IMG/VR virus record: IMGVR_UViG_3300037501_000212
Source of the DNA: a virus
Reading direction: 5' to 3' (one strand)
Length of the DNA stretch: 64,000 nucleotides
Translations under genes and position numbers: made by a program
Shown here: in pieces, positions 9,084 to 57,405 of the stretch
Position numbering within the stretch: the first letter of the stretch is position 1
Layout of the letters: each line of letters opens with the position of its first letter
Notes under the pieces: model-generated
Database searches by the model: none
What the model saw: only the letters and a program-made list of their open reading frames with translations
What the model was told of the DNA's origin: nothing

Positions 9084-9584
9084 TTACTTCCTTTCTGCAG
9101 AAAAAGTAAAGTCTGAGATTTGCTTTGCATTCCAGTACCTTTCCATATGAGCTTGCTTCTTTGTTGTCAACATTTTAACAGGCCACCAGTAAGGTGCTTC
9201 TGGATCTACACCAGGCCACATATGTCCGTAGAAATCGTAGTCCTTGCGCACCAGATTGCATCTGTGAGAAAGATGCAATCTTGGGTCTCCCAGCCATTTT
9301 GGCAAGCGAATATTATCACCAAACCACATAGGCAGAGCATAAAAATTCATGCTGTTTTTGAAGCCTCTGCGCTTCCACTCTGAAATAATGACATTTGTGT
9401 ACAGCTTCAAAGCATCTTCATAGCCACGCCACATGCGAACAGCTACATGGTTTTGCCAGCAGCTGCCATGCTCAAGTGTCTGCAATATTTGCATGGCTTC
9501 AACTCTTTGCTTGCCAAGACGCTTAGAGTCAAGACACATTGCACTTTCTAAGAATCCTGCATATGGAAGAAATGTTTGCACCAT
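9084..9584 (-). CDS. possible pyrimidine-dimer DNA glycosylase-like (Pyr_excise-like) protein
   Basis: The N-terminal pattern FLPY..F..SA.CLD.KRLGKQRVEA.QIL...W.NH.A..MW.GY resembles a family I recall annotated as DenV-like glycosylases. This is memory-based only. Confidence 0.4.
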   Translation of the reverse strand: MVQTFLPYAGFLESAMCLDSKRLGKQRVEAMQILQTLEHGSCWQNHVAVRMWRGYEDALKLYTNVIISEWKRRGFKNSMNFYALPMWFGDNIRLPKWLGDPRLHLSHRCNLVRKDYDFYGHMWPGVDPEAPYWWPVKMLTTKKQAHMERYWNAKQISDFTFSAERK

Positions 9585-11128: not shown

Positions 11129-11725
11129 TCAATTGCCTACTTTTACAAATTGGAATATCATCTTGCTTGTCTTGGCAGCAGATGCAGCTGTCTCTGCAGC
11201 TGGTGCTGCTGGATGTATATCTCTTCCTCTTCCATCAACAGGTGGCAGCTCAATGAATTCCACCTTCCTTGGTACTTCAAACATCAATTCTCCTTCCTTT
11301 GCCATTTCCTCATTTGGAAGGATGATTGTTCCATTGAATCTCCAGTTTGTTCTTGATATTCTAACAACACCAGATCTTTTGCTTTCCTCTGCAGTCTTTG
11401 TGTCTCCACGATAGCAAATCTTCAGCCCATTTGGATCTGGTCTTATCAATCCAAATCGATCATTCTTGTCAATAAGGACATCAATTCTTTGCCCTATAGA
11501 GAATCCAACCATCTTCATCAACTCATTTCCAATTACAATGACAAGCTGGAAATGCACAAATGGCCGACTTCGATCTACAGCTGTGTTGTACAATCTGGCT
11601 GTTAGCAGTCTTCCATCTCTTCCTCTGCCTGTTGTTCTATCTACTTCCTTCTTGTCTTCCTTGATTGGCTTTTTGCGCAGGATTGATTCAAATGCCATGT
11701 CAATCTCTCCTTCGGTTTTCTTCAT
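11129..11725 (-). CDS. hypothetical protein
   Basis: 198-aa ORF, the first gene of the minus-strand block next to the divergent region. Confidence 0.5.
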   Translation of the reverse strand: MKKTEGEIDMAFESILRKKPIKEDKKEVDRTTGRGRDGRLLTARLYNTAVDRSRPFVHFQLVIVIGNELMKMVGFSIGQRIDVLIDKNDRFGLIRPDPNGLKICYRGDTKTAEESKRSGVVRISRTNWRFNGTIILPNEEMAKEGELMFEVPRKVEFIELPPVDGRGRDIHPAAPAAETAASAAKTSKMIFQFVKVGN

Positions 11726-11845
11726 TTTGTCGATTGCCGTTTCTTCCAGGGAACGACTGGTCTTACTTTCTTATTCGCCATTTGTGTGTGGATGTGTGAA
11801 AAAATTTTCTTTACTTTTCGTGTTGCATCAGGTAAGATTCTGTCC

Positions 11846-12634
11846 ATGAGCGACTCTATAAAAAGAATCAAAGATCCTCTACGACGGTCCAAGTTGATTG
11901 CTCCCAATATTGGCGATGGAGCCATTCCAAAACAACTGCGCAATGTTAGAACTGGTAGAAAGTCTACTGACAAGCTGAATACGATGCAGCGTCGGTTTGT
12001 TGACAATTATGTCAAAACTGGACGCAAGGGATGGTCTGCGACTCAAGCTGGCTACAGTGGTGGGCCAAATGCTGCGTCAAACATGTTGAAAAATCCAAAG
12101 ATCCAGGCCGCCATTGAGTCCCGCAGGGCTAAGATGCAGCAGGTTGTAGATGAAATCTTCTCGGTTGAAGCTAAGGAAGTTTTGCGTGAGATTGCATTGA
12201 TTGCATTCAGCAACATGGGTGATTTCTTCAAGGATTGGGGACAGCGACAGAAGACAATTTCAATTCCTGGCAAGGATGGTAAGGTTCAGACAATCACCAT
12301 CAATGAGAACTTTGTCATACCAAAGAGCAAGAGCGAGCTGTCAGAGCTGCAGCAGCGTTGCATTGATGAGATTAGCCTTGAGGAAAGCAACAAGGGCAAG
12401 ACATTTCGATTCAAGATCAAGGACAAGCTGGGTGCACTCAAGCTGCTTGGCAGCTACTTTGGATTGTTTGATGGTGGTGGCAAACGGGTTGATCCCAATG
12501 ACACTGTTGCACAGCTGAGAGAAGCAGCTGCCAGGATGGACAATCTGATGCCTGGTGGCTCTCGCAACAACGGTGTTACATCTGAGGATATGCCTGACTA
12601 TGAGGAAGATCCAGCTGATTCTGATGATGAGTAG
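11846..12634 (+). CDS. terS: terminase small subunit
   Basis: MQRRFVDNYVKTGRKGWSATQAGYSGGPNAASNMLKNPKIQAAIE resembles the HTH N-terminus of Terminase_2-type small subunits. It is the first gene of the late block upstream of terL. ATG 11846 is preferred over GTG 11786. Confidence 0.7.
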   Translation: MSDSIKRIKDPLRRSKLIAPNIGDGAIPKQLRNVRTGRKSTDKLNTMQRRFVDNYVKTGRKGWSATQAGYSGGPNAASNMLKNPKIQAAIESRRAKMQQVVDEIFSVEAKEVLREIALIAFSNMGDFFKDWGQRQKTISIPGKDGKVQTITINENFVIPKSKSELSELQQRCIDEISLEESNKGKTFRFKIKDKLGALKLLGSYFGLFDGGGKRVDPNDTVAQLREAAARMDNLMPGGSRNNGVTSEDMPDYEEDPADSDDE

Positions 12635-12798
12635 TCTTGCACTCATCTCTTGCACAGAGCAGAAGGTCTATGTTCTTCAAATCAAGGACAGCTACAACGT
12701 TTGCGTGAATATCAAGACCACCATTGACAAGCCATTTGAGCTGACTGCAGACATTCCAATCAGTGTGATTCCAAAATCAGAAGCAAAGGAGGAGTCAA

Positions 12799-13662
12799 GT
12801 GCTGAAAAACAAGATCGCCCTATGTGTTGGAATCAATAACTATCCTGGCATTGACTCAGATTTGTCTGGCTGCGTGAATGATGCCAAGGACTGGTCCGAG
12901 CTGCTAAAGAAAAATGGATTTGTCGTTGGTCTTTTGCTTGACCAGGTGGCAACTCGATCAAATGTTTTGCATCGCTTGCATTCAATGGTAGCTGTGCTGC
13001 AACCAAATGACACCATGGTGTTTACATTCAGTGGGCATGGCACTCAAGTGCCAGATGAGAACAGTGATGAGCCAGATGGGCTGGATGAATGTCTGTGCTG
13101 CTATGACAGCAAGTTTGGTGGTCTTATTTATGATGATGAGATTTGGAAGATCTTCCGCAGCAAGAAGCCTGGTGTGAAGATTGTCATGATCAGCGACTCT
13201 TGTCATTCAGGCACCGTAGCTCGCAAGATGGGTGCAAGACCTTTGCTGCTTGATCCAGACAAGCAAAATGGTCCACCAATTGCTCGAAGAAAGTATGTTC
13301 CGTATCAGGTGCTGGAAATGGCTGGCTGCATGCCAAGAGGTCCTGAGCTGGATCCAGCTGCCAGGCAAATGCTGTCAGAAGAAGGTGGCTGGCTGAAGGA
13401 ATCTGTTGGCTCAGACAAGGTGCCATGGCCTTTGCTTCTTCTATCTGGATGTCAAGACAACGAGTACAGCTACGATGCTGAGATAAACCATCGCCCCAAT
13501 GGTGCTTTGACTGCTTATGCAATCAGCACCTACAACAATCTTCCAAAAGATGTCACCTACCGACAATGGTTCACTGAAATTCGCAGCAAACTGCCAAACT
13601 TATACTATCCACAGACACCTCGCATGGCTGGTTCCTATATTGATACTCCAGCACTCAGCTAA
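12799..13662 (+). CDS. caspase-fold (peptidase C14, metacaspase/orthocaspase-like) protease
   Basis: Catalytic dyad motifs in canonical order, FTFSGHG (His) and ISDSCHSG (Cys). N-terminal LCVGINNYPG...GCVNDA and p10-like LSGCQDNEYSYD...GALTAYA. AGGAGG lies 6 nt before GTG 12799. Confidence 0.85.
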   Translation: MLKNKIALCVGINNYPGIDSDLSGCVNDAKDWSELLKKNGFVVGLLLDQVATRSNVLHRLHSMVAVLQPNDTMVFTFSGHGTQVPDENSDEPDGLDECLCCYDSKFGGLIYDDEIWKIFRSKKPGVKIVMISDSCHSGTVARKMGARPLLLDPDKQNGPPIARRKYVPYQVLEMAGCMPRGPELDPAARQMLSEEGGWLKESVGSDKVPWPLLLLSGCQDNEYSYDAEINHRPNGALTAYAISTYNNLPKDVTYRQWFTEIRSKLPNLYYPQTPRMAGSYIDTPALS

Positions 13663-13673
13663 GGAGGAATCAA

Positions 13674-13856
13674 ATGGCAAAGCTAATGATCAAAAAAGCT
13701 CGTACTGCTGCGCAAAAGGCTGCTGCAAAGAAATGGGCTGCAGCTGGTGCTGCCAAGCGCAAGACTGGCAAGAAGATGGGGTTGAAGGAGTACCTCAAAA
13801 GAAGCTCCAAAGGCAACCGCACTGGATACAGTGCTCGCATAGAGGCTTTCTACTGA
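13674..13856 (+). CDS. small Lys/Arg/Ala-rich basic protein
   Basis: 60-aa ORF with a strong RBS (AAGGAGG, 6 nt spacer). Contains KKWAAAGAAKRK, a motif repeated in ORF 15654-15767. Confidence 0.5.
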   Translation: MAKLMIKKARTAAQKAAAKKWAAAGAAKRKTGKKMGLKEYLKRSSKGNRTGYSARIEAFY

Positions 13857-13877
13857 TATCCAGAGAATTCCAAGAAG

Positions 13878-14093
13878 TTGCTGCGTGGTGTGTACAAAAC
13901 CATCCTTGCCAAAGAGATCAACAGTGCAAAGGCTTACAACAAGAACAGACGTGGTTCCAATCGCTTTGATCTCACCAAAGGCTCCAAGGACTTTGCCAAC
14001 ATTCGTAAGGCAGCAGCCAACACATTCAAAGACAAAGTTCGGTTGCACAACTTTTCGTCTGGCAAGACCAATTCTTACATGAAGAAGCGATAA
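13878..14093 (+). CDS. small basic protein (possible readthrough extension of 13674-13856)
   Basis: In frame with the previous ORF across a single TGA (13854-13856). The only start is TTG 13878, with no RBS. Confidence 0.3.
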   Translation: MLRGVYKTILAKEINSAKAYNKNRRGSNRFDLTKGSKDFANIRKAAANTFKDKVRLHNFSSGKTNSYMKKR

Positions 14094-14095
14094 GC

Positions 14096-14278
14096 TTGGC
14101 TGACATACTTCCATTTCCATCACATGCAGAAGAGCTTGGATTCGGCTACATCATCTGTGGTGAGTGCAAGGGCAGGCACTTTATTGTTGAAGTTGAAGAT
14201 GGTGTCGGCAAATATCATGTCTCAGTCTTGCATTGCACCAAATGTGGTGCTTATCTTGAGTTAGACAAAACCAAATGA
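14096..14278 (+). CDS. zinc-ribbon small protein
   Basis: CGECKG...CTKCG (two CxxC pairs). TTG start 2 nt after the preceding TAA. Its stop overlaps the terL ATG (ATGA). Confidence 0.45.
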   Translation: MADILPFPSHAEELGFGYIICGECKGRHFIVEVEDGVGKYHVSVLHCTKCGAYLELDKTK

Positions 14279-15657
14279 CAGAAAATCCTCCATTGTTGAC
14301 ACCTCGCTGGACTCCTATGAAGGAGCATGATGAGCAAGCTCGTTTGGTTTCGAGTCTTGCCAGATTCCGTGTTGTTCCAGCTGGTCGGCGATCAGGCAAG
14401 ACTGAATTGGTCGGCAAGAGACAAATGATTCAGCGATGCCTGTCATGCCATGATCCAAGCAGTCGTTACTTCCGTCCATTTGCAGATCCTCGCTTTTTTG
14501 TAGCAGCTCCAACTCGTGACCAGGCCAAGAGAATTTATTGGTCTGATTTGAAGGCTTTGACACCTAAGTGGTCCATGTCAAAGGCACCCAACGAGAGCCA
14601 CCTGGTGATCAGCTATATCACTGGTGCAGAGCTGCATGTTTTGGGGATGGATCGGCCAGAGCGTGTAGAAGGTACTCCATGGGATCATGGATTGCTGGAT
14701 GAATATGGCAACATGAAGAAGCAGACATGGGAGGCACATGTTCGGCCTTCCTTGTCTGATCGCAAGGGTGGCTGTGACTTCATTGGTGTGCCAGAAGGTC
14801 GCAACCACTACTACGATTTGTACAAGCGTGCTCAAAAGCGCAAGGCAGAAGCTCTTGCAAAGGGCTTGTATCCAACCTGGGATGTCTTCTGGTGGCCAAG
14901 TCGTGACATTCTCGATTCAGACGAAATAGAGGAAGCTAAGCAAGACCTTGATGAGTTGACATACCAGCAAGAGTATGAAGGAAGTTTCATCAATTTTACA
15001 GGTCGTGCTTACTATGCCTTCCAAGAGCACTTGCACTGCAAGCGAATGTTCTACGACAAGTTCTCAGACTTAATTCTGGCCATGGACTTCAACGTAGCGC
15101 CTGGTGTAGCTGTGATCATGCAGGAGCAGGTCTTGCCAGGCAATCTTGGCTTTACTGGAACTGGTATCATTGGAGAGGTGTACATTCCTCGCAACAGCAA
15201 CACCGAGCTGGTCACTCGGAAGTTCATCACTGATTGGGGAAAGCACAAAGGTCGCATCTTCGTCTATGGTGACTACACTGGTGGAAGTTCCAAGAGCAGC
15301 AGCTTGATGGGCAGCGACTGGGAGATTGTCAAACGCATGCTGCGTGCCCACTTTGATCCAGAGAAGCTGTTCTTCCGCATCAAGCCCAATCCTCGTGAGA
15401 GGGATCGTGTCAATTCTGTTAACAGCCGACTGCTGTCAATGGATGGTCGCATTCGGATGATGGTTGATCCTGGCAAGGCTCCAAATGTTGTCAAGGACTT
15501 TGAAGGTGTCACATTGGTAGAAGGTGGCAGCGGAGAAATTGACAAGAAGGAGAATCCTGATCTTACTCATTTGACAGATGCAATCGGCTACTATGTGTGG
15601 ACCGAATATCCGCTGTCTCGTGTCTGGGAACCTCTTAAAGAAAGGTATTGGAAATGA
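14275..15657 (+). CDS. terL: terminase large subunit
   Basis: Walker A VPAGRRSGKTE and Walker B GLLDEYGNM. C-terminal nuclease-type acidic motifs (LAMDFNVAPG, VYGDYTGG, HLTDAIGYY). 460 aa. Confidence 0.85.
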   Translation: MTENPPLLTPRWTPMKEHDEQARLVSSLARFRVVPAGRRSGKTELVGKRQMIQRCLSCHDPSSRYFRPFADPRFFVAAPTRDQAKRIYWSDLKALTPKWSMSKAPNESHLVISYITGAELHVLGMDRPERVEGTPWDHGLLDEYGNMKKQTWEAHVRPSLSDRKGGCDFIGVPEGRNHYYDLYKRAQKRKAEALAKGLYPTWDVFWWPSRDILDSDEIEEAKQDLDELTYQQEYEGSFINFTGRAYYAFQEHLHCKRMFYDKFSDLILAMDFNVAPGVAVIMQEQVLPGNLGFTGTGIIGEVYIPRNSNTELVTRKFITDWGKHKGRIFVYGDYTGGSSKSSSLMGSDWEIVKRMLRAHFDPEKLFFRIKPNPRERDRVNSVNSRLLSMDGRIRMMVDPGKAPNVVKDFEGVTLVEGGSGEIDKKENPDLTHLTDAIGYYVWTEYPLSRVWEPLKERYWK

Positions 15658-15767
15658 GCAAGCGCAGATCTTATCGAATGACTCAGGCTCGCAAGGAAGC
15701 AACCAAGCGCTGGCAAGCTGCTGGTGCTGCCAAACGCAAGCTTAGCAGTTCTTCCATGTTCGCATAA
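15654..15767 (+). CDS. small basic peptide (paralogous motif to 13674-13856)
   Basis: 37-aa ORF MSKRRSYRMTQARKEATKRWQAAGAAKRKLSSSSMFA. ATGA overlap with the terL stop. Not in the ORF track because it is under 60 aa. Confidence 0.35.
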   Translation: MSKRRSYRMTQARKEATKRWQAAGAAKRKLSSSSMFA

Positions 15768-15875
15768 GTAAGGCATTGGTGCATGGCTATGGCAAGCTGT
15801 CTGGCAAAGCTCGCAATGCAACTGGTCCGAAGAAGTTGAATATCAAGATGGCAAAGGCCAAGCTTTGGGACAAAC

Positions 15876-16250
15876 TTGGGCAATGGTAGGCCAAACACAA
15901 TGGACAGTCCTGTTTGCAAGTTTACAAAGGTTGACAAGCTTTGGGGGCATGAAGAGATCATCGTAAATGATGAGTTCTGCTTCAAGCGTCTTGTTGTCAA
16001 CAAGGGATGGAGAGTCAGCTATCACCACCACAAGATTAAGGATGAGCTGTTCTATCTTGAGAAAGGACTGGTGGTGATTGAACTGAATACGGTGGAATAC
16101 ACACTTGGGCCAGGCCAATGGCTGCGTGTTAGGCCTGGTGACTGGCACTCCTTTGCAGCACTGGCTGATTCGGTGCTGCTTGAAGCCAGCACCCACGATG
16201 ATCCTTCTGACAGCTACAGAGATCCAAGTCGGTTGAGTGGAAGGTGGTAG
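15876..16250 (+). CDS. cupin-domain protein (sugar-phosphate isomerase-like?)
   Basis: WGHEEIIVND...SYHHHKIKDELFYLEKG...PGDWHSF is a typical cupin two-motif pattern. Start uncertain (TTG 15876 or ATG 15900). Confidence 0.6.
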   Translation: MGNGRPNTMDSPVCKFTKVDKLWGHEEIIVNDEFCFKRLVVNKGWRVSYHHHKIKDELFYLEKGLVVIELNTVEYTLGPGQWLRVRPGDWHSFAALADSVLLEASTHDDPSDSYRDPSRLSGRW

Positions 16251-16253
16251 TCT

Positions 16254-16739
16254 GTGTCTTCTGAACACAAAATAATGAAGCTGGCAGAGCTTAGGAAGGC
16301 ATTGGTGCATGTCAGAAAGTATCTTGGCACCATTGTGTTCACCAATGGTTGCTTTGATATTCTGCATGCTGGCCATGTTGATTATTTAGAAAAGGCAAAG
16401 CAGCTTGGTACGGTGCTGGTTGTTGGTGTCAACTGCGACAGATCTGTCAGAAATCTCAAAGGTCCAGCTCGTCCATACACACCGATGGATGAAAGATGCA
16501 GAATCATAGCAGCACTTGCTTGTGTTGACTATGTTACCATCTTCTTCCAGAACACTCCAATGAAGTTGATTGAGCATCTGCGCCCACACATCATCGTAAA
16601 GGGAGATGATTGGAAGGAAGATGGTGTCGCTGGTGCTAAGTTCATAAAGGACTATGGCGGAAAAGTGATTCTTGTTGAGCAGGTGTTCTCAGTTCACACC
16701 ACTGCTTTGATAGAAAGAATTAAGGGTGAAAAGCCTTAG
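16254..16739 (+). CDS. hldC: D-glycero-beta-D-manno-heptose 1-phosphate adenylyltransferase (RfaE domain II type)
   Basis: FTNGCFDILHAGHVDYLEKAKQLG...LVVGVNCDRSVR...KGPARP...ERCRIIAALACVDYV closely follows the HldE C-terminal/HldC cytidylyltransferase-fold signature. It is adjacent to the matching kinase. Confidence 0.85.
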   Translation: MSSEHKIMKLAELRKALVHVRKYLGTIVFTNGCFDILHAGHVDYLEKAKQLGTVLVVGVNCDRSVRNLKGPARPYTPMDERCRIIAALACVDYVTIFFQNTPMKLIEHLRPHIIVKGDDWKEDGVAGAKFIKDYGGKVILVEQVFSVHTTALIERIKGEKP

Positions 16740-17598
16740 ACCAAAGATCCTTGTGATAGGTGATCTAATCATAGACGAATATGTCTATGGGGATTGCCAC
16801 CGCATCAGCCCAGAGGCACCAGTGCCTGTTGTCAGTGAGACTCGTCGGTTCATCACCCAGGGAGGCGCTGGGAATGTCGCTGAGAATCTCAAGGCATTGG
16901 GAGCAGAGGTTACATTCTGGTATGGTGAAAAGAGCAGCCACAAGATGCGTATTGTAGCTGGCCATCAGCATGTGGTGCGATTGGACAAGGATGACCTGAC
17001 AGAGGTGCCTTCTCCTGGTATGCTTGAGGACTGGGTCTACTATGTTGACTTGGTTGTTGTAAGTGACTATTGCAAGGGTGTTGTTACGGAGGAGATGCTT
17101 GAACTGCTGAATGAGTATTGTTCGATATATGGCAAGCCACTGATGGTGGATCCATACAATGGTCGCTGCAACTATGGTGCTGCAGTCACTTTGATAAAGC
17201 CTAATCGCTACGAGTGCCAATCTGTGACTGGCATCAAAATTGTTGACAACACAAGTTTGCACGAGTCTGCCCAAAAATATCTGCAGATGTCTAAAGCCAA
17301 GCATTTGGTTGTTACATTGGGTGCTGAAGGCATGGTTTTGTTCTATTCGGACAACAAAGTTGAACCATACCATTCCAGATGTGAGCCAAGACAAATATTC
17401 GATGTGACTGGAGCTGGTGACACAGCCATGGCAACACTGGCATACATATGGGCGTTGCCTGAAGGTGGTAAACTGAGCAAGCGCTCTTCGGTTGATTGGG
17501 CTGCAAAAGCAGCCAGCTTGGCTGTGGAGAAGCTTGGTACATCTGTAATTGGCTACAAAGAGCTGTTTGGTGAAAATTTTAACAACAAGGAGAAATAG
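16726..17598 (+). CDS. hldA: D-glycero-beta-D-manno-heptose 7-phosphate kinase (RfaE domain I, pfkB family)
   Basis: ILVIGDLIIDEYVYGDCHRISPEAPVPVV...GGAGNVAENLKALG and DVTGAGDT (pfkB motif) are typical of the HldE N-terminal/HldA kinase. It overlaps hldC. Confidence 0.85.
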   Translation: MKSLRPKILVIGDLIIDEYVYGDCHRISPEAPVPVVSETRRFITQGGAGNVAENLKALGAEVTFWYGEKSSHKMRIVAGHQHVVRLDKDDLTEVPSPGMLEDWVYYVDLVVVSDYCKGVVTEEMLELLNEYCSIYGKPLMVDPYNGRCNYGAAVTLIKPNRYECQSVTGIKIVDNTSLHESAQKYLQMSKAKHLVVTLGAEGMVLFYSDNKVEPYHSRCEPRQIFDVTGAGDTAMATLAYIWALPEGGKLSKRSSVDWAAKAASLAVEKLGTSVIGYKELFGENFNNKEK

Positions 17599-17600
17599 CC

Positions 17601-19166
17601 ATGCCTACTGCAACCCAAGAAGGTGCTGTTGTAATCGACATGGTGGACAAGCTTTTTACAGATTCAGAACAGGACAAGTCCACATTGGAGAAAAAGCATG
17701 CACTGTATCTTGAGAACATAGAGAACTGGAATTTCTTGCTGGCTTGCTATGAAGGTGCAGAGGCCATGCGCAAGCTGGGATTGCTCTTCCAAAATGAAAG
17801 GGAATCAGACAAGAATTACCAGCGCAGGCTGAAGGAGCTGTACACCTTCAACTACAGTCGCAGCGTGGTTGATCTATTTAACTTCTACCAGTTCAAGTCA
17901 CCTATCCGACGCCAGCTGGCTTCTCTTGGGAATCATCCTGATTGGGAAGACTTTGAGAAGGATTGCAATCGGGATGGTGACAACCTTGACAACTTCATGA
18001 TGGAGCAGTCCAAGATGGCCGACATCCATGGACATGTTGGCATCTTGGTTGACAGACCAAAGGGAGATTTCCAGACAGCTGCAGATGCTCTTGGAAAGTG
18101 GCCATACTTTTGTGCATACCTTCCGCAAAACATACTGGATTGGGAGTTTGAAAGGGACGAAAGTGGTCGCAGAGTGCTGGTCTACATCAAGCTGCTGGAT
18201 GATGAAGGCAAATATCGGCTGTGGTTCCTTGACCACTGGGAGATATGGGAAATCCAAAAGGAGGAAGGCAGTGGTACAGAAAGGGCTGTGCTGCTGGAGT
18301 CAGCTGTCAATCCTCTTGGAGAGATTCCATTTGTTTGGCTGTACTGCAACAAGAGCACCAAGCGAGAGATTGGCAAGAGCGACATTGCCGACATTGCCAA
18401 GATTGATGCAAGCATCATGCGAAACTTGTCCCAGATGGAAGAGATCATCAACTTCGCAGCCTTTCCGATGATGCGGAAGCCTTACAAAGAGCATGGCCAG
18501 ACAGAGCAGCCGGATGATGCTGGTGTTACAGCTGTGCTTGGCTTTGATCCAACCATGCCTGAGTCTAAGCCTGATTGGCTTGAGGCAGCTGTAGAAGGTC
18601 CGATAAATGCCATCCGTGAATTTTTGATGAAGAAGATTGAGGAAATATATCGTGCCAGCAATGCAGGTGGCTTGGCAGCTACAGAGATCCAAGGTCAGGC
18701 CAAAAGTGGTGTGGCTCTTCGCACCGAGTTCCAACTGCTGAATGGAAAGTTGATAAAGAAGTCTGAGAATGTTGTCAAGGCCGAGCGCATGTTGCTTTAC
18801 TTCTGGTGCTTGTGGGTTGGAATTCCAGAGGCTTGGGATGAGGTCAAGATCGAAAGGCCAAGAACTTTTGAGATTGAAGACTTGGCTACCGATTTGAACA
18901 ATGTGCTCACTGCCAAGACCATCGTTGTCAGCAAGACATTTGATGCTGAGTTGCAGAAGATGGTTGTGCGCTTGATGCTGCAAACAGCTGATGATGAGAC
19001 AATCACGACCATCGATGAGGAAATTGAGGAAGCCATTGAGCATAATGAATTGCTTGGATATGGCGAAGGTCTGGAAGGCTACATGAATGGCATGGGTCTG
19101 ACAGAAGAAGATCTTGCAGCTGCAGATCAGATGCCAGAGGAGGAAGAAGCTGAAGAGGAGGTGTGA
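17601..19166 (+). CDS. portal protein
   Basis: 521 aa with an AAGGAG RBS, in the packaging module and followed by a MuF-type protein. Very acidic C-terminus. The call rests on position and size; no family motif was identified. Confidence 0.65.
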   Translation: MPTATQEGAVVIDMVDKLFTDSEQDKSTLEKKHALYLENIENWNFLLACYEGAEAMRKLGLLFQNERESDKNYQRRLKELYTFNYSRSVVDLFNFYQFKSPIRRQLASLGNHPDWEDFEKDCNRDGDNLDNFMMEQSKMADIHGHVGILVDRPKGDFQTAADALGKWPYFCAYLPQNILDWEFERDESGRRVLVYIKLLDDEGKYRLWFLDHWEIWEIQKEEGSGTERAVLLESAVNPLGEIPFVWLYCNKSTKREIGKSDIADIAKIDASIMRNLSQMEEIINFAAFPMMRKPYKEHGQTEQPDDAGVTAVLGFDPTMPESKPDWLEAAVEGPINAIREFLMKKIEEIYRASNAGGLAATEIQGQAKSGVALRTEFQLLNGKLIKKSENVVKAERMLLYFWCLWVGIPEAWDEVKIERPRTFEIEDLATDLNNVLTAKTIVVSKTFDAELQKMVVRLMLQTADDETITTIDEEIEEAIEHNELLGYGEGLEGYMNGMGLTEEDLAAADQMPEEEEAEEEV

Positions 19167-19313: not shown

Positions 19314-21407
19314 ATGCCGACACTCGAAGAGATTGCCAAGCAGCAGCGCTACTTCCTTGTTACAAGCATCCAAGAGGATCGTGACAACCTGCTGGCAGCT
19401 ATTGAAGGCTTGGAAAAGCGCATTGTTGACATGGCTCGCAAAAGGCTTGAGACAGACGATGCGCAAAAGCTGCTTGGCCCAAAGGCCAATCTCAAGATGG
19501 CTCAAAAGTTGCATGAGGATCTCGTACGAGAATTCAAGAAGAAGTATGAGGATGTTGTTCTCAAAACAGTTGAAGGCTATGACGAGATTGCTGCAATGAT
19601 CAGAGACAGCTGGGCAGAGCTTGGCACTGTTGTCAGGTACACAGCTGTTGATCGTGAAATGATGGAGGTGTTGAGGAAAGGCTACTACGACGAGTTCACC
19701 AAGTTCGGCACAGATGCTCAGCAGAAGATGACAAGAGCGATGTATGATGCGGTGGCTGGCCAAAGTGGCTTTGATGTACTGGAGTCTGCCATCAGTGCAG
19801 CACTTACTGGCAAGGTTTCAAAGAATGGCCGACCAATGTCAACTTATGCAGCCATGTTTGCCAATGATGCAATCATGAACTTCCACAATGCGGTGACAAT
19901 GAAGAAGGCTGCAGATGTTGGCATCAAGACCTTCCTGTATTATGGCAACCTGATCAATACCAGTCGCCCTTTCTGCATAGAAAGAGCAGGCAAGAAATAC
20001 ACCCAAGAGGAAATTGATAGCTGGACCTTCCCATGGATTGGCAAGTCTGGTCCAGCAATGACACACCGAGGTGGCTACAACTGTCGTCACCACTGGATGC
20101 CAATACATCCTGACTGGAGCAGCAAACCTGAACCACCACCTGCTGTGCCTGAACCACCCAAGCCTCCACCAGACATCAAAATAAAGATCAGCAACCCGAC
20201 TACTCCAGAGGCTGCTGCCAAGTACATGGCTTACCTTTCCAAGAAGGAAGGGGAGCTTCTGAAATTGTTTGACAATGACAAGTATCGATCAATTCACCAG
20301 CGCTTGATAGAAATAAAGCTTGACAATGACTTGCTGAAGATAAATGAGGATGCATTTGCCTATCTGAAGACTGAATTTGATTCAATGGGCATTGACAAAG
20401 ATGCAAGCAAGATTGTCAACTCTGTGTTTCGTGTTTGGGGAGAGCAGCGCAAAGCCAACATAATCATGAGCACCACCAAGGTTGCAACGCCAGCTGTTTT
20501 CCAAGACATGATGAATGATATCAGGATAGGGTACAAGACTGGTGAGTTCACAATGGAGCAAGCAATCAAGGAGCTTGAGAAGCTTGCTTCGGAATTTATA
20601 GATGACTCCATCTATTGGGACTTTACTGGGTGTGATCCAGAGGCAATATACAGCTCCTTGGCAGAGTTGAATGAAATGGCAAAGCTGTATCCAGGTGTCA
20701 TGAAGAGGCTTGAGTACATAGGAACCTATGGCGGCAATGTTTCAAACTTTCCTGTTTCTGTCAAAGAATCTTTGAACATGAAGATAGACAAGTTTGGCAC
20801 TAATGAATTTGCCCATGCCAACTATTCACACGGAACATACATCGGCATCAACCCCAAGTATTACAGCAACTATAACAGATTGAGGAAGAGTGTTGTTTCT
20901 TGCGAGGCTTCTGGACACCACCCCATTGGAACTGATAGGGCTAGCAGCATCATGGTTCACGAGTTTGGCCACATGGTTCAAAGCGAGCTGCGCCACAAGT
21001 TTGGAACAGTGGTTGAAGAATGGGAGCAGTTCTTTATGAAGGGAACCTTTGTCAACAAGAAAAGGCCAAAGGTGCAAAGTGATAATCCGATGTTCCTTTC
21101 TGGCTATGCAGTCAAGGCTGGAAGATTGGAGCCATGGGCAGAAGCATTTGCGCAGATGTGGTGCGTAAAGGAGCCTTCAGAGCTTGCTTACTTCACAATG
21201 GAGCTTAAAAGGTTCTTGACCTTTTCCAAGACAGCCAACTACACTGACATGAAATGTCTTGGAAGGATCATCAAGTCAGCATCTACAAAGATATTTGGCA
21301 GCAGCCCATCTCCAACGAAGCTGGCAGAGGTGTTTGAGCAAGCAGCAGACAAGCTTGGTGGAACATACCAAGAAGTTGCAAAGAAATACATGTCAATAAG
21401 GCTGTAG
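19314..21407 (+). CDS. MuF/SPP1 gp7-type minor head protein fused to a C-terminal HExxH metallopeptidase-like domain
   Basis: SRPFCIERAGKKYT...GPAMTHRGGYNCRHHW (MuF signature). Pro-rich linker PEPPPAVPEPPKPPP, then about 400 aa containing HEFGH (20958-20972). Confidence 0.8.
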   Translation: MPTLEEIAKQQRYFLVTSIQEDRDNLLAAIEGLEKRIVDMARKRLETDDAQKLLGPKANLKMAQKLHEDLVREFKKKYEDVVLKTVEGYDEIAAMIRDSWAELGTVVRYTAVDREMMEVLRKGYYDEFTKFGTDAQQKMTRAMYDAVAGQSGFDVLESAISAALTGKVSKNGRPMSTYAAMFANDAIMNFHNAVTMKKAADVGIKTFLYYGNLINTSRPFCIERAGKKYTQEEIDSWTFPWIGKSGPAMTHRGGYNCRHHWMPIHPDWSSKPEPPPAVPEPPKPPPDIKIKISNPTTPEAAAKYMAYLSKKEGELLKLFDNDKYRSIHQRLIEIKLDNDLLKINEDAFAYLKTEFDSMGIDKDASKIVNSVFRVWGEQRKANIIMSTTKVATPAVFQDMMNDIRIGYKTGEFTMEQAIKELEKLASEFIDDSIYWDFTGCDPEAIYSSLAELNEMAKLYPGVMKRLEYIGTYGGNVSNFPVSVKESLNMKIDKFGTNEFAHANYSHGTYIGINPKYYSNYNRLRKSVVSCEASGHHPIGTDRASSIMVHEFGHMVQSELRHKFGTVVEEWEQFFMKGTFVNKKRPKVQSDNPMFLSGYAVKAGRLEPWAEAFAQMWCVKEPSELAYFTMELKRFLTFSKTANYTDMKCLGRIIKSASTKIFGSSPSPTKLAEVFEQAADKLGGTYQEVAKKYMSIRL

Positions 21408-21871: not shown

Positions 21872-22768
21872 ATGAGCATGAAGATCAAATTGGACGACAA
21901 GAACAACGCTGTAATCACACCTGAAGGCCATGTGGTGTTTGTAGATGCCGATGGCAAAGACTTGCCAGTTGATGTGCCTGGCCTTTATGCAAAAGTCGAG
22001 GAGCTGAATGCTGAGTCTGCAAAGCATCGCAAGCAGCGTAACGAGCTTCGCGACAAGTACAAGATCTTCGAGTCAATCGAGGATATCGTGAAGTGGAAGT
22101 CTGATGCAGAAAAGGCCATGTCTACTGTCAAGAATCTCAAAGACAAGGAGCTTGTTGATGCTGGCAAGATTGAGCAGATCAAGCTCGAGACCATTGCAGC
22201 CAAAGACACCGAGATCAACCAAATCAAGGCCGAGTTCAGCACAATAATCGCTGAGAAGGACAAGATCATTGAGAAGGCCAACAGCGACATCCGTGATCTG
22301 ATGGTGGGTGCTCAATTCCGTCAGCATTCCTACTTCGTCGGAATCGGCGACCAGGCTCCCAAAACACTCCTGCCTCCAGACATTGCTGAGACTTACTTCG
22401 GCAAGCACTTCAAAGTAGAGGCAGGCAAGAACGGATCTCCAACTGTCGTTGGTTATGACAGCAGGGGCAATCAAATCTTCAGCCGTAAGAAGCCTGGCGA
22501 GTTGGCCGAGTTTGATGAGGCCATTGTGCGCATTGTCGAAGAGTATCCTCAGAAAGACCAAATCATGCGCGGTGGAAAGGGTGGCTCTGGTGGTGAAGGT
22601 GGCAGTGGTGGTGGTGCTCGCAAGACTGGCATTGATGCTGAGATCGCCAAGCTTGAAGAAGCCCATGTCAAGGCATCTCAGGCCAAAGATGGTCGCACTG
22701 CAGTGGCCTTGAAGAACAAGATTCACGAGCTCAAGCAACGCAAGTCGCTTGGGTTCACAACGGTGTAG
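21872..22768 (+). CDS. scaffolding protein
   Basis: 298 aa immediately upstream of the capsid gene. Charged coiled-coil-like sequence plus a Gly-rich patch GGKGGSGGEGGSGGG. GGAGG RBS. Confidence 0.65.
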   Translation: MSMKIKLDDKNNAVITPEGHVVFVDADGKDLPVDVPGLYAKVEELNAESAKHRKQRNELRDKYKIFESIEDIVKWKSDAEKAMSTVKNLKDKELVDAGKIEQIKLETIAAKDTEINQIKAEFSTIIAEKDKIIEKANSDIRDLMVGAQFRQHSYFVGIGDQAPKTLLPPDIAETYFGKHFKVEAGKNGSPTVVGYDSRGNQIFSRKKPGELAEFDEAIVRIVEEYPQKDQIMRGGKGGSGGEGGSGGGARKTGIDAEIAKLEEAHVKASQAKDGRTAVALKNKIHELKQRKSLGFTTV

Positions 22769-31975: not shown

Positions 31976-32782
31976 ATGTCTTTTGAGACTGAGATAAAAG
32001 CAACAGAGCAGCCACAGATTCCAGAGCTGTATGAGGTTCGCGGAAATGGCTATGTTTGGCGCTACACATCGTACAAGAACGATTTGTCATTTCAAGGCAA
32101 GACTTATAAGGCTTCTACAATAAAGCGAGGAGCATTCAACCGCACTTCTTCTGCTGGAGATTCAAAAGTCAGCATATCATTTCCAGTAGCAGCTCCAATC
32201 AAGGAGCACATAGCCAGCTATCCGATACAAAATGTTTGGGTGAAGATCTTCCAAGCCATTGATCCTGCGATGACAAGCTATGCCTTGCTTTTTGAAGGCA
32301 AGATAAAGAAGGTTTCGTTACAAGGTAAGATAATAACAGCCGAGTGTGGCATTGATGATGATCTGTCGCAAATGCTGCCACACATTGTCTATCAAAGCTA
32401 CTGCAACTGGACAGTCTTCGATCGCAATTGTGGTCTTGAAGACAATGCTTGGGCTGTCACAGCTGCAATCACTGGCCAGACAGATGGTGGCATGTACATA
32501 GTCAGCCCTGTGTTTGCCACCTATGAGAATGGCTGGTTCACACAGGGCAGGGTTGTCTATGATGGTGATGCAAGGTTTGCTATTTGGCATGAAGGCAGCA
32601 CTGTGTGTTTGCAAGTTCCATTTACAGCTGGTGCAGGTGTCGTCGGAAACTCGGTGACTGCATATCCTGGATGTGATGGCAATCCATCCACCTGCAAGAC
32701 CAAGTTCAACAATTTCTTGCTTAGACATGTATCAATGCCTTACATCCCATGCAACAACCCAGTGCTCTGGGGATTCAAGTGA
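31976..32782 (+). CDS. tail hub protein (DUF2163 + BR0599-type C-terminus, GTA g13-like)
   Basis: C-terminal CDGNPSTCKTKFNNFLLRHVSMPYIP matches the 'phage conserved hypothetical BR0599' motif (C.....C..kF.N..nF.G.P.iP). Confidence 0.65.
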   Translation: MSFETEIKATEQPQIPELYEVRGNGYVWRYTSYKNDLSFQGKTYKASTIKRGAFNRTSSAGDSKVSISFPVAAPIKEHIASYPIQNVWVKIFQAIDPAMTSYALLFEGKIKKVSLQGKIITAECGIDDDLSQMLPHIVYQSYCNWTVFDRNCGLEDNAWAVTAAITGQTDGGMYIVSPVFATYENGWFTQGRVVYDGDARFAIWHEGSTVCLQVPFTAGAGVVGNSVTAYPGCDGNPSTCKTKFNNFLLRHVSMPYIPCNNPVLWGFK

Positions 32783-33273
32783 TGACACCATTCTTTGAAG
32801 ATAGGCTTAACTGGACAAAGGCCAAGCTTGTCATGCAAGAGTGGATGGGCACGCCATACAGACATTTGTGGATGAAGAAGCAAAGAGGAGCTGACTGCTC
32901 ATTGTTTGTTGGTGCTATATTGAAGGAGCTTGGCATCATACGAAATGTAGTGCACGACATATATCCTCCTGATTGGTATGTGCATTCAAACAAGCTAGAT
33001 CTGATAAGAGATGGCTTCGCAGAGCACATAAAAGCTGAGATGGCAAATGGATTTGCGCTTGTGAAGATTGAAAGCATCAAGTGCATAATGCGCGGTGACA
33101 TGCTTACATTCAGCACAGTCAAAACTGGTGTTACCAACCATGCTGGAATCATGCTTGATCCTCCAACCACCTTTGTACATTCGGTTCGTGGTAGAGGCGT
33201 GTCGCTGATGAATTGGGGCAAATACTGGGAAGAAAAGACAACAGCAATATATAGGGTGTGCTGTGGGAACTGA
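32782..33273 (+). CDS. NlpC/P60-family cell-wall peptidase (tail-associated, GTA g14/lambda K-like)
   Basis: PYRHLWMKKQRGADCSLFV (catalytic Cys context) and NHAGIML (His). Start ATG 32782 overlaps the preceding TGA. Confidence 0.7.
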   Translation: MTPFFEDRLNWTKAKLVMQEWMGTPYRHLWMKKQRGADCSLFVGAILKELGIIRNVVHDIYPPDWYVHSNKLDLIRDGFAEHIKAEMANGFALVKIESIKCIMRGDMLTFSTVKTGVTNHAGIMLDPPTTFVHSVRGRGVSLMNWGKYWEEKTTAIYRVCCGN

Positions 33274-39677: not shown

Positions 39678-40351
39678 CAATCAACGCTGGCAAGTTGGTA
39701 AAACTGTCTTACAAAAACATCACAGATGCAGTTGATTCATTTCATGAATTCTATGAGATGAACAAGTTGTGGGAGAAGACCACATGGCTTGGGCAGCAGA
39801 TGTGGAAGCTGCCATTTGATGCAATCGTGCTGCAGGAGATCATATATGCTACCAAGCCTGATCTTGTAATAGAGACAGGCACTGGCATGGGTGGCTCAGC
39901 GCTATTCTATGCAAGCATCTTGCACTTGCTTGACAATGGAATGGTGCTGACAATAGATGAGAAGCGCAAATTCCACAATTTTGGTGATACAACTGCAGCC
40001 AATCGCATCAACTTCATAGAAGGATCCAGCATTGCAGACAAAACGCTGGAGCATGTGAGACGCATTGCATCTGGCAGGCGCTGCATGGTTATACTTGACT
40101 CTTGGCACACCTTTGAACATGTGCAGAAGGAGCTGGAGGCTTACAAGGAGTTTGTCTCGCTCGGCTGCTACATGGTTGTGGAAGACACCCATGTCAATGG
40201 CCACCCAGTGCAATGGGAATGGGGTGCTGGTCCATACGAGGCTGTGCAGCATTTCATCGAGAAATATCCAGGAGTGTTTGTGGTTGACAAACAGAGGGAG
40301 CGCCACATGATGACATTCAACCCTTCTGGATATCTGAGGAGGATGATATGA
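39674..40351 (+). CDS. CmcI/cephalosporin-hydroxylase-family methyltransferase (sugar O-methyltransferase type)
   Basis: WLGQQMWKLPFDAIVLQEIIYATKPDLVIETGTGMGGSALFYA...ILDSWHTFEHV...VVEDTHVNGHPV follows the CmcI family pattern. Confidence 0.75.
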   Translation: MTINAGKLVKLSYKNITDAVDSFHEFYEMNKLWEKTTWLGQQMWKLPFDAIVLQEIIYATKPDLVIETGTGMGGSALFYASILHLLDNGMVLTIDEKRKFHNFGDTTAANRINFIEGSSIADKTLEHVRRIASGRRCMVILDSWHTFEHVQKELEAYKEFVSLGCYMVVEDTHVNGHPVQWEWGAGPYEAVQHFIEKYPGVFVVDKQRERHMMTFNPSGYLRRMI

Positions 40352-41445
40352 TACCGCTATTCAAAGTATTCATGGATGGAGCAGTTGACACTGCGCTTTC
40401 CAAAGTGCTTCACTCTGGCTACATTGGCCAGGGCGAGAAGGTTCGGCAGTTCGAGGCAGCGCTTGGCAAGCGATTTGGCAACTGCAATGTGCTGGCATTG
40501 AGTGCTGGCACCCATGGGTTGCACCTTGCATTACGGCTGGCTGGAGTGGGAAAAGGTGATGAAGTAGTCACGACGCCACTGACTTGCACTGCCACCAACT
40601 GGCCTATTCTGATGCAAGGTGCAACACCAATTTGGGCTGATGTAAAGGACGACTTCAATGTTGATCCTGAATCAGTCAGAACAGCTATAACAGATCGCAC
40701 CAAAGCTATCATCTGTGTGCATTGGGGTGGCTATCCATGCGACATGGCGGAGTTGACAAAGATTGCTTACGACAACAATCTGGTGCTGATTGAGGATGCA
40801 GCCCATGCCTATGGAAGCGACTACAAGGGCATTCCAATAGGCAGCATGCCAGGCACCGATTACACCATGATGAGCTTTCAAGCAATCAAGCATCTGACAA
40901 CAGTCGATGGTGGTGCTCTTTTCTGCAAGACCAAGGAGCAGTATGACAAGGCCAAGTTGCTGCGCTGGTATGGTATTGACAGAGAAGGACCACGCACTGA
41001 CTTCCGCTGCGAGCAGCCAATAGCAGATTGGGGATACAAGTACCACATGAATGATGTCTGTGCTACTATTGGTCTGCAAAACATGGCAGCAGCTGACAGA
41101 AACATAGAAAGATGCAGAGCCAATGCTGCTTTGTACGACAGAGAGCTTGCAGGTGTGCCTGGGTTGAAGATTACTCAAACAGCTGATGATCGCAAGAGCT
41201 CTTATTGGCTGTACACAATCATGGTCGAGAATCGTAGCGAGTTCTGCTACATGATGGGAAGCAGAGGCATAGCAGTCAGCAGAGTGCATGAAAGAAATGA
41301 CAAGCATCCTTGCACCTCTGACTTTTGCTGCTTCCTTCCTAAGCTCGAAGAAGTTGTAAGCAAGCAAATTTGCATACCAGTAGGCTGGTGGCTTGGTGAT
41401 GACCAAGTTGAGCACATCATAGAGTCAATCAAAGGAGGATGGTGA
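40348..41445 (+). CDS. DegT/DnrJ/EryC1/StrS-family PLP-dependent sugar aminotransferase
   Basis: GYIGQGEKVRQFEAALGKRFG, SAGTHGLHLALRLAGVGKGDEVVTTPLT, EDAAHAYGS, and the SFQAIKHLTTVDGG Lys motif. Confidence 0.85.
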   Translation: MIPLFKVFMDGAVDTALSKVLHSGYIGQGEKVRQFEAALGKRFGNCNVLALSAGTHGLHLALRLAGVGKGDEVVTTPLTCTATNWPILMQGATPIWADVKDDFNVDPESVRTAITDRTKAIICVHWGGYPCDMAELTKIAYDNNLVLIEDAAHAYGSDYKGIPIGSMPGTDYTMMSFQAIKHLTTVDGGALFCKTKEQYDKAKLLRWYGIDREGPRTDFRCEQPIADWGYKYHMNDVCATIGLQNMAAADRNIERCRANAALYDRELAGVPGLKITQTADDRKSSYWLYTIMVENRSEFCYMMGSRGIAVSRVHERNDKHPCTSDFCCFLPKLEEVVSKQICIPVGWWLGDDQVEHIIESIKGGW

Positions 41446-48803: not shown

Positions 48804-49507
48804 ACAAGATCAAGAAATGCTTATTCACATTGGCAACCAAAGGCTATGAAGAAGAGATGATGGAGCTGACACTGCCGCTCCTCAAGCAGTATGCAGACAA
48901 GATAAGAGCAGAGTTTCACATCATAGAAGGCAGAAAATTCCCAGAATGGCCTGTGCAGTGTGAAAAGCTGCAGATCTTTGATCTTGGCAGACAGATGGGC
49001 AATGATTGGAACATCTACATTGACTCGGATGCTTTGGTGCATCCTGAGATGATAGATGTGACGACATTGATACAAAAGGACACGGTGCTGCATGCTGGGA
49101 TGGATTATGCAAATGTCCGATGGCTGTATGATGAGTACTTCCTGAGAGATGGACGCAATATCGGAAGTTGCAATTGGTTCACTGTTGCCAGCGATTGGTG
49201 TCTTGATTTGTGGCGAATGCCAGACGATTTGACGCCAGAAGATGTTGCAGCTCGCATCATTCCAACAGTTGATGAGGAACTGACTGGCATGAAGACCAGC
49301 TTGAATCTTGCAGATGACTTCTTGCTCGGTCGCAACATAGCCAGGTTTGGCCTGAAGTTCAGACCATTGTATCAAATTCTTCCAGAGGTTGGGCTTGGCA
49401 ACAGTTTCTTCCTATGGCACCAATACACAAAGACGCCAGAGCACAAGCTTGAGGAGATGAAGCAAGTGCTGGCAGGCTGGCGACTTTTCCAGCCGTATGC
49501 CAAGTGA
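48800..49507 (+). CDS. possible GT-A-fold nucleotide-sugar transferase
   Basis: 235 aa with a DxD-like IYIDSDALVHPE after an N-terminal Rossmann-like segment. Weak assignment. Confidence 0.4.
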   Translation: MNKIKKCLFTLATKGYEEEMMELTLPLLKQYADKIRAEFHIIEGRKFPEWPVQCEKLQIFDLGRQMGNDWNIYIDSDALVHPEMIDVTTLIQKDTVLHAGMDYANVRWLYDEYFLRDGRNIGSCNWFTVASDWCLDLWRMPDDLTPEDVAARIIPTVDEELTGMKTSLNLADDFLLGRNIARFGLKFRPLYQILPEVGLGNSFFLWHQYTKTPEHKLEEMKQVLAGWRLFQPYAK

Positions 49508-49515
49508 GGTGGCTT

Positions 49516-50052
49516 ATGAAAAAATACAAGCTGCCAAAGATAAATGGTTGGATGAGTGATGAGGAGATGTATTGGCTTTATGAAAAGGCCAAGCTGATGG
49601 CTTCCATTGCTGAGATTGGATGCTGGCGTGGTCGCAGCACTCATGCATTGCTGTCTGGATGCACAGGTCCGGTCTTCGCAATAGACACATTTGAAGGAAG
49701 CCCAAGTGAAATTGACAGTGCTCACAGCGAAGTTGCCAGTCATGACATCAGAAGGGAATTCTTGAACAACCTGAGGAAGTTCAAAAACTTAGTTCCAATT
49801 TGCATGGACAGTGTTTCTGCGTCAAGATATTTTGCAGAAGAGTCAATAGACATGGTGTTCATTGATGGCAGTCATTCTTACAAGGATGTGTTGGCTGATA
49901 TTTGGAGATGGAAGCCAATATGCAGATGGCTTCTGTGTGGGCATGATCGTGACCAGGATGGTGTGCCGAAGGCTTTAAAGAAGCTTGGGCTAAAAATTAA
50001 AAAGGAGGCTGGCACAATTTGGTCTGTTGATATGACGGAGGTGCAAAAATGA
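49516..50052 (+). CDS. class I SAM-dependent methyltransferase (Methyltransf_24-like)
   Basis: IAEIGCWRGRSTHALL, MVFIDGSHSYKDVLADI. GAGGTGG RBS before ATG 49516. Confidence 0.65.
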   Translation: MKKYKLPKINGWMSDEEMYWLYEKAKLMASIAEIGCWRGRSTHALLSGCTGPVFAIDTFEGSPSEIDSAHSEVASHDIRREFLNNLRKFKNLVPICMDSVSASRYFAEESIDMVFIDGSHSYKDVLADIWRWKPICRWLLCGHDRDQDGVPKALKKLGLKIKKEAGTIWSVDMTEVQK

Positions 50053-52556: not shown

Positions 52557-52567
52557 GGTCTTGACCG

Positions 52568-56261: not shown

Positions 56262-56744
56262 GTGATGGATGAACGACAAGAGCATTCTCCAGTGTCGAAG
56301 TATCAGAGCCTTAAGGAATACTGGTCTGACCCAATAAGGAACAGAAGAGTAAAGGCTGGTGGAAGAAGGGAGGCAGATTTTGCTGTGTGTGCATTCCATG
56401 AGTCTAAGGAAGAACAAGATCGCAAGAGCGCTGAGCATATCTGTGGAAGATTAAAGACACTCAAGTCTGACATAGAAAAGGATCTGAGCCAATTGAAGAT
56501 GGAGCATGAAAGTGACAAAGCAGCAATGGAAGGTCGGATATCATCATTGGATTCTCGCAGCATAGGCAAATGGCCATTTGGTATATTTGTTATTCTGTTT
56601 GGGCTGATTGTTGGACTGATAAGTTTAAACAACAACTCAATGCTGAAGCGGATTCTTGATGACATAGATAATCTGAAGGAAAAAGTTGTAGTGATAAGCA
56701 CTGTCATCAACCGAGAAGGCAAAGATGCTATCAGCCCAAAGTGA
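56262..56744 (+). CDS. membrane protein (one TM segment, coiled-coil N-terminal part), lysis-module candidate
   Basis: The hydrophobic segment WPFGIFVILFGLIVGLISL is flanked by charged regions. Confidence 0.45.
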   Translation: MMDERQEHSPVSKYQSLKEYWSDPIRNRRVKAGGRREADFAVCAFHESKEEQDRKSAEHICGRLKTLKSDIEKDLSQLKMEHESDKAAMEGRISSLDSRSIGKWPFGIFVILFGLIVGLISLNNNSMLKRILDDIDNLKEKVVVISTVINREGKDAISPK

Positions 56745-57403: not shown

Positions 57404-57405
57404 AA

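Follow-up and report, generated by a model that had tools for sequence, protein, structure and literature searches.

What is a caspase-family protease doing between the two terminase genes of a phage? The question is raised by IMG/VR record IMGVR_UViG_3300037501_000212, of which a stretch of 64,000 nucleotides (nt), here called the window, was analysed. In it, a metacaspase gene (12799..13662, + strand; GTG start, 287 amino acids (aa) plus stop in the list of open reading frames (ORFs)) stands between the genes for the small (terS) and large (terL) terminase subunits. Caspase-family proteases are nearly always studied as host genes and play a central part in current thinking on bacterial immunity and regulated cell death. 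What is new here is that a known enzyme family occurs in a phage clade of its own, with a genomic association of its own. Because the members of this clade mostly travel within or beside lysis cassettes, we tentatively propose that the enzyme is an auxiliary lysis or host-demolition factor, a reading that we hold to be plausible and somewhat short of probable.

The identity of the protein was assessed via profile, sequence and structure searches. The ORF matches Pfam Peptidase_C14 (PF00656) with 95.2 bits (E 6e-27, residues 5-274) against a curated cut-off of 21.4, by score a match far beyond chance, and this was the only Pfam family reported; CHAT (PF12770), the other family against which a search had been advised, gave no match at E <= 0.01. 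A sequence-only reading of the same DNA had taken the product for a C14 protease whose His/Cys dyad is intact and had noted a strong ribosome-binding site, and it was right on both counts. The SGHG motif occupies residues 78-81 (His80 codon 13036-13038), the DSCHSG motif residues 133-138 (Cys135 codon 13201-13203), and the Shine-Dalgarno sequence AAGGAGG (12786..12792, +) lies 6 nt before the GTG start. Among PDB sequences the best match is GSU0716/3bij (E 7e-31, residues 6-274), followed by yeast Yca1, AtMC4, TbMCA2 and AtMC9. In this search the mutated residue (Ala) of Yca1 C276A (4f6p) lines up with Cys135, and a second HMMER stretch aligns query residues 212-280 to the Yca1 p10 region. An AlphaFold2 model built with 120 homologues has a mean predicted local distance difference test (pLDDT) score of 83 and a predicted template modelling score of 0.83; its first beta-strand begins at residue 5, and low confidence (pLDDT < 50) is limited to residues 137-145 and 188-200. 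Foldseek matched the model to AtMC9, GSU0716/3bij and AtMC4 with template modelling scores of 0.72-0.78 and probability 1.00, with TbMCA2, Yca1 and MALT1 ranking next.

The chain is divided into a p20-like catalytic half (12799..13227, +; residues 1-143) holding His80 and Cys135, a variable linker (13225..13422, +; about residues 143-208) and a p10-like half (13423..13659, +; about residues 209-287), the last delimited by alignments A1 and A3 and the Yca1 match. Since p20, linker and p10 are in one chain and the alignment to 3bij covers residues 6-274, the protein belongs to the prodomain-less type I class. It has no signal peptide and is a soluble metacaspase of the GSU0716 kind, not a CHAT protease.

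Conservation was read from a 120-sequence alignment and from A1 and A3, which contain 25 and 17 sequences. H80, C135, D133, D112, D113, S224 and D226 are invariant in the largest alignment, D28 and S78 are invariant in the two smaller ones and at least 90% conserved in the 120 sequences, and C25 is nearly invariant across alignments. The candidate S1-pocket residues C25, D28, S78 and D133, all in the p20-like half, are, at motif level only, positional equivalents of TbMCA2 Cys92, Asp95, Ser156 and Asp211, the proposed S1 pocket of that enzyme (PMC4357240). An acidic, metacaspase-like pocket implies cleavage after Arg or Lys, which is where the window protease most likely cuts. The p20 half also carries an acidic cluster (D86, E91, D93, D96, E97, D103, D112, D113). 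The Ca2+ site of TbMCA2 consists of Asp173, Asp189, Asp190 and Asp220 (PMC4357240), and three of these four aspartates have equivalents in D96, D112 and D113. The Asp220 position (Cys+7), mapped by ungapped extension of the alignment, is taken by an invariant Arg142, which is Lys in 3bij; with the fourth ligand replaced in this way, Ca2+ dependence is uncertain. The linker columns are length-variable and gap-rich in A1, and the linker contains two basic motifs, R142-K143 and R163-R164-K165, as candidate autoprocessing sites; R142 is invariant in A1 and A3. In the p10 half, which carries a VPWP motif, C218, D220 and S224-Y-D226-A227 are invariant (A1, A3). VPWP ahead of the p10 strand and a C-terminal GSY motif are signatures of the clade.

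Choi and Berges (2013, PMC3734836) described the GSU0716 type as a bacterial type I metacaspase without prodomain, in which a linker of about 50 aa joins p20 to p10. The window protein shares with GSU0716 of G. sulfurreducens (3BIJ) the single-chain arrangement with a linker of about 50-70 aa between p20 and p10, the lack of a prodomain, the same SGHG and DSCHSG motifs, and a basic residue at the fourth Ca2+-ligand position. However, the two are only about 27% identical, a value taken from the structural alignment alone, and GSU0716 is chromosomal and without known function, whereas the window protein falls in a separate clade, found to date on phage contigs only. The eukaryotic metacaspases Yca1, TbMCA2, AtMC4 and AtMC9 (MEROPS C14B) have the same fold, dyad, S1-pocket residues and three of the four Ca2+-site aspartates, but the window protein differs from them in having no prodomain, in its Arg at the fourth ligand and in being carried by a virus of bacteria. 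Metacaspases of giant viruses (Fadolivirus, Clandestinovirus, Medusavirus and others) are likewise virus-encoded C14 proteins, but they are longer, belong to viruses of eukaryotes and are 21-27% identical to the window protein. The significant matches among the predicted viral structures of BFVD all came from eukaryotic viruses, mostly giant viruses and one ascovirus, with no phage protein among them. Caspases of bacterial defence, such as the TIR-caspase of type IV Thoeris, gasdermin-activating proteases and CHAT/Craspase, share the clan CD fold and a possible cell-death role in infection; in contrast to the window gene, they are host-encoded with a TIR, gasdermin or CRISPR partner. Membership in a known family of defence caspases was considered and rejected: the PADLOC 'caspase' model PDLC02987 aligns to the p20 half with 61 bits over profile positions 5-130 of 453 only, NCBIfam caspase_w_EACC1 reaches 22.9 bits against a cut-off of 140, and the neighbours are terS, small ORFs and terL.

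The family as a whole is large. More than 2,500 homologues were found in protein databases, mostly single-domain proteins of about 271 aa, and reference genomes place the family in at least 590 species of many phyla, with no member more than 46% identical to the window protein. A neighbour-joining tree, drawn without support values, separates a bacterial clade in which the gene is closely followed by that of a giant protein, a second bacterial clade without such a partner (P0072 and P0020 are in ordinary chromosomal surroundings), and a group of long-branched viral sequences in which the window protein clusters with the metagenomic sequences P0002-P0019 (46-61% identity). Every context recovered for the window clade is a phage contig. 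IMG/VR yielded 60 more distant loci at no more than 42% identity, about 45 of them phage-like and about 15 in giant-virus bins. The latter, GVMAG bins with metacaspase relatives of 25-40% identity, are L048, L049, L054-L056, L058, L060-L064, L068 and L071-L073. Scanning metagenomes with the phage-clade alignment brought no further contexts for the clade; all matches among those listed were at most 46% identical. When the protein was compared by tblastn with 50,697 phage records, one match appeared, at 34% identity in a 485-kb uncultured phage. An intact phage metacaspase is thus very rare in sequenced phages (1 of 50,697 records) and recurrent in metagenomic ones. At least one virome preprint lists phage 'metacaspase-1' genes as auxiliary genes, without analysis.

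In the window phage the gene is an insertion. Its left boundary is terS (11786..12634, +; Terminase_2 E 6e-19, phrog_51 E 7e-23) and its right boundary terL (14275..15657, +; Terminase_6N, phrog_2 E 7e-30). terS is the first gene of a rightward late block in which terL, portal, minor head protein, scaffold, SU10-type capsid protein and tail genes follow; the genes upstream of it, including a primase and two helicases, point leftward. In the nearest annotated phage, MW202621 from a freshwater spring, whose terL product is 52.7% identical to that of the window, terS overlaps terL directly, terL and portal are separated by no more than an ORF of 213 nt, and no caspase was found by the same tblastn search. 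Compared with MW202621, the window carries two insertions, one of 1.6 kb with the caspase and small ORFs (12635-14274) and another between terL and portal with cupin and RfaE-like sugar-nucleotide genes (15658-17600). Being an insertion that the nearest annotated relative lacks, the caspase is accessory and belongs neither to the core packaging genes nor to the packaging machinery. The placement in a packaging operon made by the sequence-only reading therefore holds for the location between terS and terL and fails for core membership. Recent acquisition was considered and rejected, as the GC content and skew of the gene match those of its neighbours. Consensus scans over 11500-17700 for a promoter or terminator of its own gave no more sites than shuffled sequence, and the caspase is likely co-transcribed with the late genes.

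The association with lysis genes emerged from ten clade contexts (n = 10), with proximity defined as lying within three genes of an endolysin and/or a DUF1353 gene. Six of the ten caspases (L006, L159, L157, L158, L001 and L010) are that close, and the neighbours in these contexts often include spanin-like or lipoprotein genes. DUF1353 has been shown by experiment to be a phospholipase A2 (TtaP), with prophage relatives located beside muramidases (PMC11525133). Two of the contexts, L006 and L159, belong to relatives of the window phage and have the cassette directly downstream of terS. In L006, where the caspase is 61% and a terL fragment 78% (over 236 aa) identical to the window, the order is the end of terS, a 162-aa transmembrane/coiled-coil protein (a single membrane helix at the N-terminus, then a coiled-coil-like tail), caspase, muramidase (PF11860), DUF1353, a basic ORF and terL, which closes the cassette. 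In L159, terS (about 60% identical to window terS) is followed by a basic ORF, a 158-aa transmembrane/coiled-coil protein homologous to the L006 membrane protein, a 57-aa lipoprotein, a pilin-like protein, caspase, a zinc ribbon, a 63-aa ORF and DUF1353. The window keeps four elements of this cassette, namely a lipoprotein-like ORF, the caspase, a basic ORF and a zinc ribbon.

The remaining four lysis-linked contexts are on unrelated backbones. L157 has lysozyme, DUF1353 and caspase as overlapping genes, L158 has caspase, an 86-aa ORF and lysozyme, and in L010 DUF1353 is followed by the caspase. In L001 the caspase is preceded by membrane proteins and, directly upstream, a 41-aa lipoprotein, and is followed by a membrane protein and DUF1353. 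Among the distant phage loci, a muramidase gene follows the caspase in L022, and the order in L046 is DUF1353, SNase, caspase; patatin, PG_binding_1 and GH25 were present among 128 neighbours scanned in such loci. With a chance of about 15% for random proximity, six or more in ten would be expected with a probability near 1e-3, a rough estimate that is only indicative because the contexts are not fully independent.

Several observations weigh against a role in lysis. Four of the ten clade contexts (the window, L007, L240 and the P0014 contig) have no lysis enzyme nearby; L007 and L240, as well as L016 and L018 outside the ten, carry the caspase in a replication/SbcC module, and on the P0014 contig it follows the portal gene. 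The number of contexts is small, and some of them (window, L006, L159) share descent. In the window itself the lipoprotein-like ORF is the only such gene left beside the caspase; no DUF1353 or muramidase gene was found by tblastn with the neighbours from L001, L006 and L010, hidden Markov models built from five DUF1353 and two lysozyme sequences gave no match, and Pfam and PHROGs annotation of 56 window proteins identified no endolysin in the 64 kb. Eighteen unannotated window ORFs, concatenated and compared with PDB sequences, likewise gave tail-hub matches only and no endolysin; the endolysin of this phage may lie outside the window or be too divergent. When the ORFs lying up to 5 kb from the caspase in 50 phage loci were clustered all against all, no neighbour proved common to them, nor do the roughly 45 more distant phage-like IMG/VR loci have a conserved one. 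A recurrent neighbour of about 125 aa in L044-L046 was rejected as a partner, being a generic SNase-like nuclease. Regions flanking lysis cassettes are known hot spots for passenger genes, so the linkage may be passive. To our knowledge, no member of the GSU0716-type family, GSU0716 included, has been biochemically characterised. Finally, for a protein without signal peptide, access to the envelope would need holin lesions, which is an assumption.

With these points in mind, the proposed lysis or host-demolition role can be pictured as follows. The metacaspase would be made late in infection, in the cytoplasm, and around lysis would cut host envelope or cytoplasmic proteins; alternatively, it would at that moment cut or activate partner lysis proteins. 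A more elaborate version, which we regard as unlikely, is a hitherto unrecognised proteolytic arm of lysis directed at demolition of the Gram-negative envelope. Here the enzyme would accumulate harmlessly in the cytoplasm until the holin acts, and after holin opening would work alongside endolysin and lipase by Arg/Lys cuts in proteins tethering the outer membrane to the wall or by activation of the DUF1353 phospholipase A2; in a variant it would fire or disarm a host metacaspase/CHAT-lipase suicide system. Among the functions that the sequence-only reading had offered, help in timing cell death comes closest to the context evidence, given the repeated linkage to lysis cassettes, although we infer the role itself. 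In the papers retrieved, no caspase-family gene is connected with a phage lysis cassette. Should the linkage prove functional, the scheme of lysis by holin, endolysin and spanin would gain a protease step, and the uncharacterised metacaspases of the GSU0716 type a first biological handle. The protein family is ordinary; what is unexpected, and testable, is the phage setting and the linkage of protease and phospholipase in phages and bacteria.

Three other explanations must be set against a lysis role. Cleavage of host defence proteins, which the sequence-only reading had also raised, would in its broader form be an anti-defence function in which the phage protease cuts a host immunity protein, or disturbs a host system centred on a homologous small metacaspase, for instance by destroying, prematurely firing or decoying its giant CHAT/lipase/TPR-S partner. 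We consider this rather unlikely and retain it because about half of the bacterial homologues examined pair with such a giant protein. In 43 of 80 bacterial loci of the closest homologues (L077-L156), a protein of about 1,600-2,000 aa is encoded closely after the small metacaspase gene, with a gap of 43-330 nt where a full-length ORF was called (for example, L149 7094-12610). The three giant proteins scanned contain two or three DUF7379 alpha/beta-hydrolase stretches, an LCAT-like lipase domain and CHAT, with TPR-S above cut-off in one and a sub-threshold hint of it in another. From this gene order and domain content, the pair looks like a conserved two-gene unit resembling an uncharacterised conflict or cell-death system, and it offers a testable lead to a protease-lipase cell-death module common to hosts and phages. 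The giant-paired metacaspases form one tree clade and are the closest bacterial relatives of the window protein (40-46% identity, same length and motifs), but in the same neighbour-joining tree, without support values, the phage clade is not nested within theirs, and no giant CHAT partner stands beside the window caspase or in the phage loci with genes listed. That bacterial immunity employs caspase-like effectors is established, type IV Thoeris being an example, and the PADLOC match to the p20 half points the same way, although of 453 profile positions it spans only 130 and the window caspase matches no known anti-defence family. As regards timing, the position in a replication module in L007, L016 and L018 would suit early or middle expression, whereas the window gene and most clade members are in late or lysis regions and many known anti-defence genes are early.

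Unlikely, too, is a passenger or 'moron' gene with a benefit other than lysis of the infected cell, either as a protease set free at lysis and acting on neighbouring cells, biofilm matrix or grazers, or in superinfection exclusion or abortive infection. The genome position of the caspase does vary among phages, it shares insertion zones with accessory genes such as cupin and RfaE-like genes in the window and glycosyltransferases in L157 and L240, and the virome survey mentioned above treats 'metacaspase-1' merely as an auxiliary gene. Nevertheless, the catalytic core is conserved across a diverse phage clade (46-61% identity), and the caspase is kept in all three related inserts on the terS side while endolysin, DUF1353 and spanin-like genes come and go, which suggests more than a transient passenger. 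Prophage-type exclusion is made less likely by the fact that no integrase was seen in the annotated parts of the window and that the phage has its own primase and helicases. The suggestion that the enzyme processes virion proteins, with capsid, scaffold, portal or internal proteins cut in place of a prohead protease, fared worst and is in our view very improbable. In its favour stand the location of the gene in the late block beside the terminase genes and the fact that Pfam and PHROGs annotation recognised no classical prohead protease family between the portal and capsid genes. Yet there is a separate scaffold gene (21872-22768; phrog_206, DUF6651), and the match of the SU10-type capsid protein to its Pfam model starts at residue 6, which leaves no room for a removable delta domain. 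MW202621 shares the order of the head genes yet has no caspase, other phages have the caspase in lysis or replication modules rather than head modules, and the minor head protein (19314-21407) offers another candidate protease motif, HEFGH. Assignment to the prohead protease class was rejected, as the gene lies upstream of terL and the nearest relative lacks it despite having the same head module.

The other ORFs of the terS-terL insert are small. Upstream of the caspase, a 79-aa lipoprotein-like ORF (12600..12839, +) shares 35 nt with the end of terS and 41 nt with the beginning of the caspase gene; the lipobox scan gives its signal as MRKIQLILMMSSLALIS followed by C (…LALIS/C), it has no Pfam match, and its homologue in L159 lies at 1607-1780 (jackhmmer E 3e-26). 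This ORF may resemble an o-spanin. Downstream, a Lys/Ala-rich basic ORF of 60 aa (13674..13856, +) has homologues at 819-1130 of L159 and at 15648-15767 (+) of the window, and a similar basic ORF of 97 aa precedes terL in L006 (3026-3319). Such small, very basic Lys/Ala-rich ORFs recur near terminase genes in the lineage of the window phage. A 71-aa ORF (13878..14093, +) has neither a family match nor a homologue in the compared loci. The last ORF of the insert is a zinc-ribbon-like protein of 60 aa with a CxxC...CxxC pattern (14096..14278, +), whose homologue at 3098-3349 of L159 (jackhmmer E 2e-27) is directly downstream of the L159 caspase; hints of zinc-binding families were weak and all below cut-offs.

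Three ORFs after the tail-fibre region (56262-57915, +) may be the holin/spanin-type genes of the window phage. They encode a 160-aa membrane protein homologous to a protein upstream of the L001 cassette (tblastn E 5e-10), a 183-aa protein with a hydrophobic N-terminus that appears possibly lipoprotein-like by eye and was negative in the lipobox scan, and a 184-aa protein that combines a single membrane helix with a coiled-coil-like tail. Among the tail genes, 31976-32782 (+) encodes a DUF2163/gene-transfer-agent-like tail hub protein, and the GADCS…NHAG motifs encoded at 32749-33273 (+) resemble, by eye only, an NlpC/P60 cell-wall peptidase.

In the head region, the minor head protein (+, 697 aa, phrog_581) has its zinc-protease-like HEFGH (HExxH) motif near the C-terminus and also matches weakly a PHROG annotated 'head maturation protease'. 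The second insertion consists of genes for a cupin (15876-16250), a cytidylyltransferase-like protein (16254-16739) and a PfkB-family kinase (16726-17598), all on the + strand, the last two of which resemble the two halves of RfaE, an enzyme of heptose nucleotide-sugar synthesis. Among the tail and late genes, an aminotransferase (40348-41445), a Methyltransf_24 protein (49504-50052) and a radical-SAM-like protein just under the Pfam cut-off (50049-51008), all +, suggest sugar or surface modification. Two adjacent proteins encoded at 51015-55930 (+) have the glycine-rich domain PF21722, and the second (1,120 aa) contains a tract of about 600 aa of extreme low complexity, nearly all serine with periodic arginines. 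On the opposite strand, 9084-9584 (-) encodes a pyrimidine-dimer DNA glycosylase (Pyr_excise, E 1e-20), a gene for the repair of ultraviolet damage.

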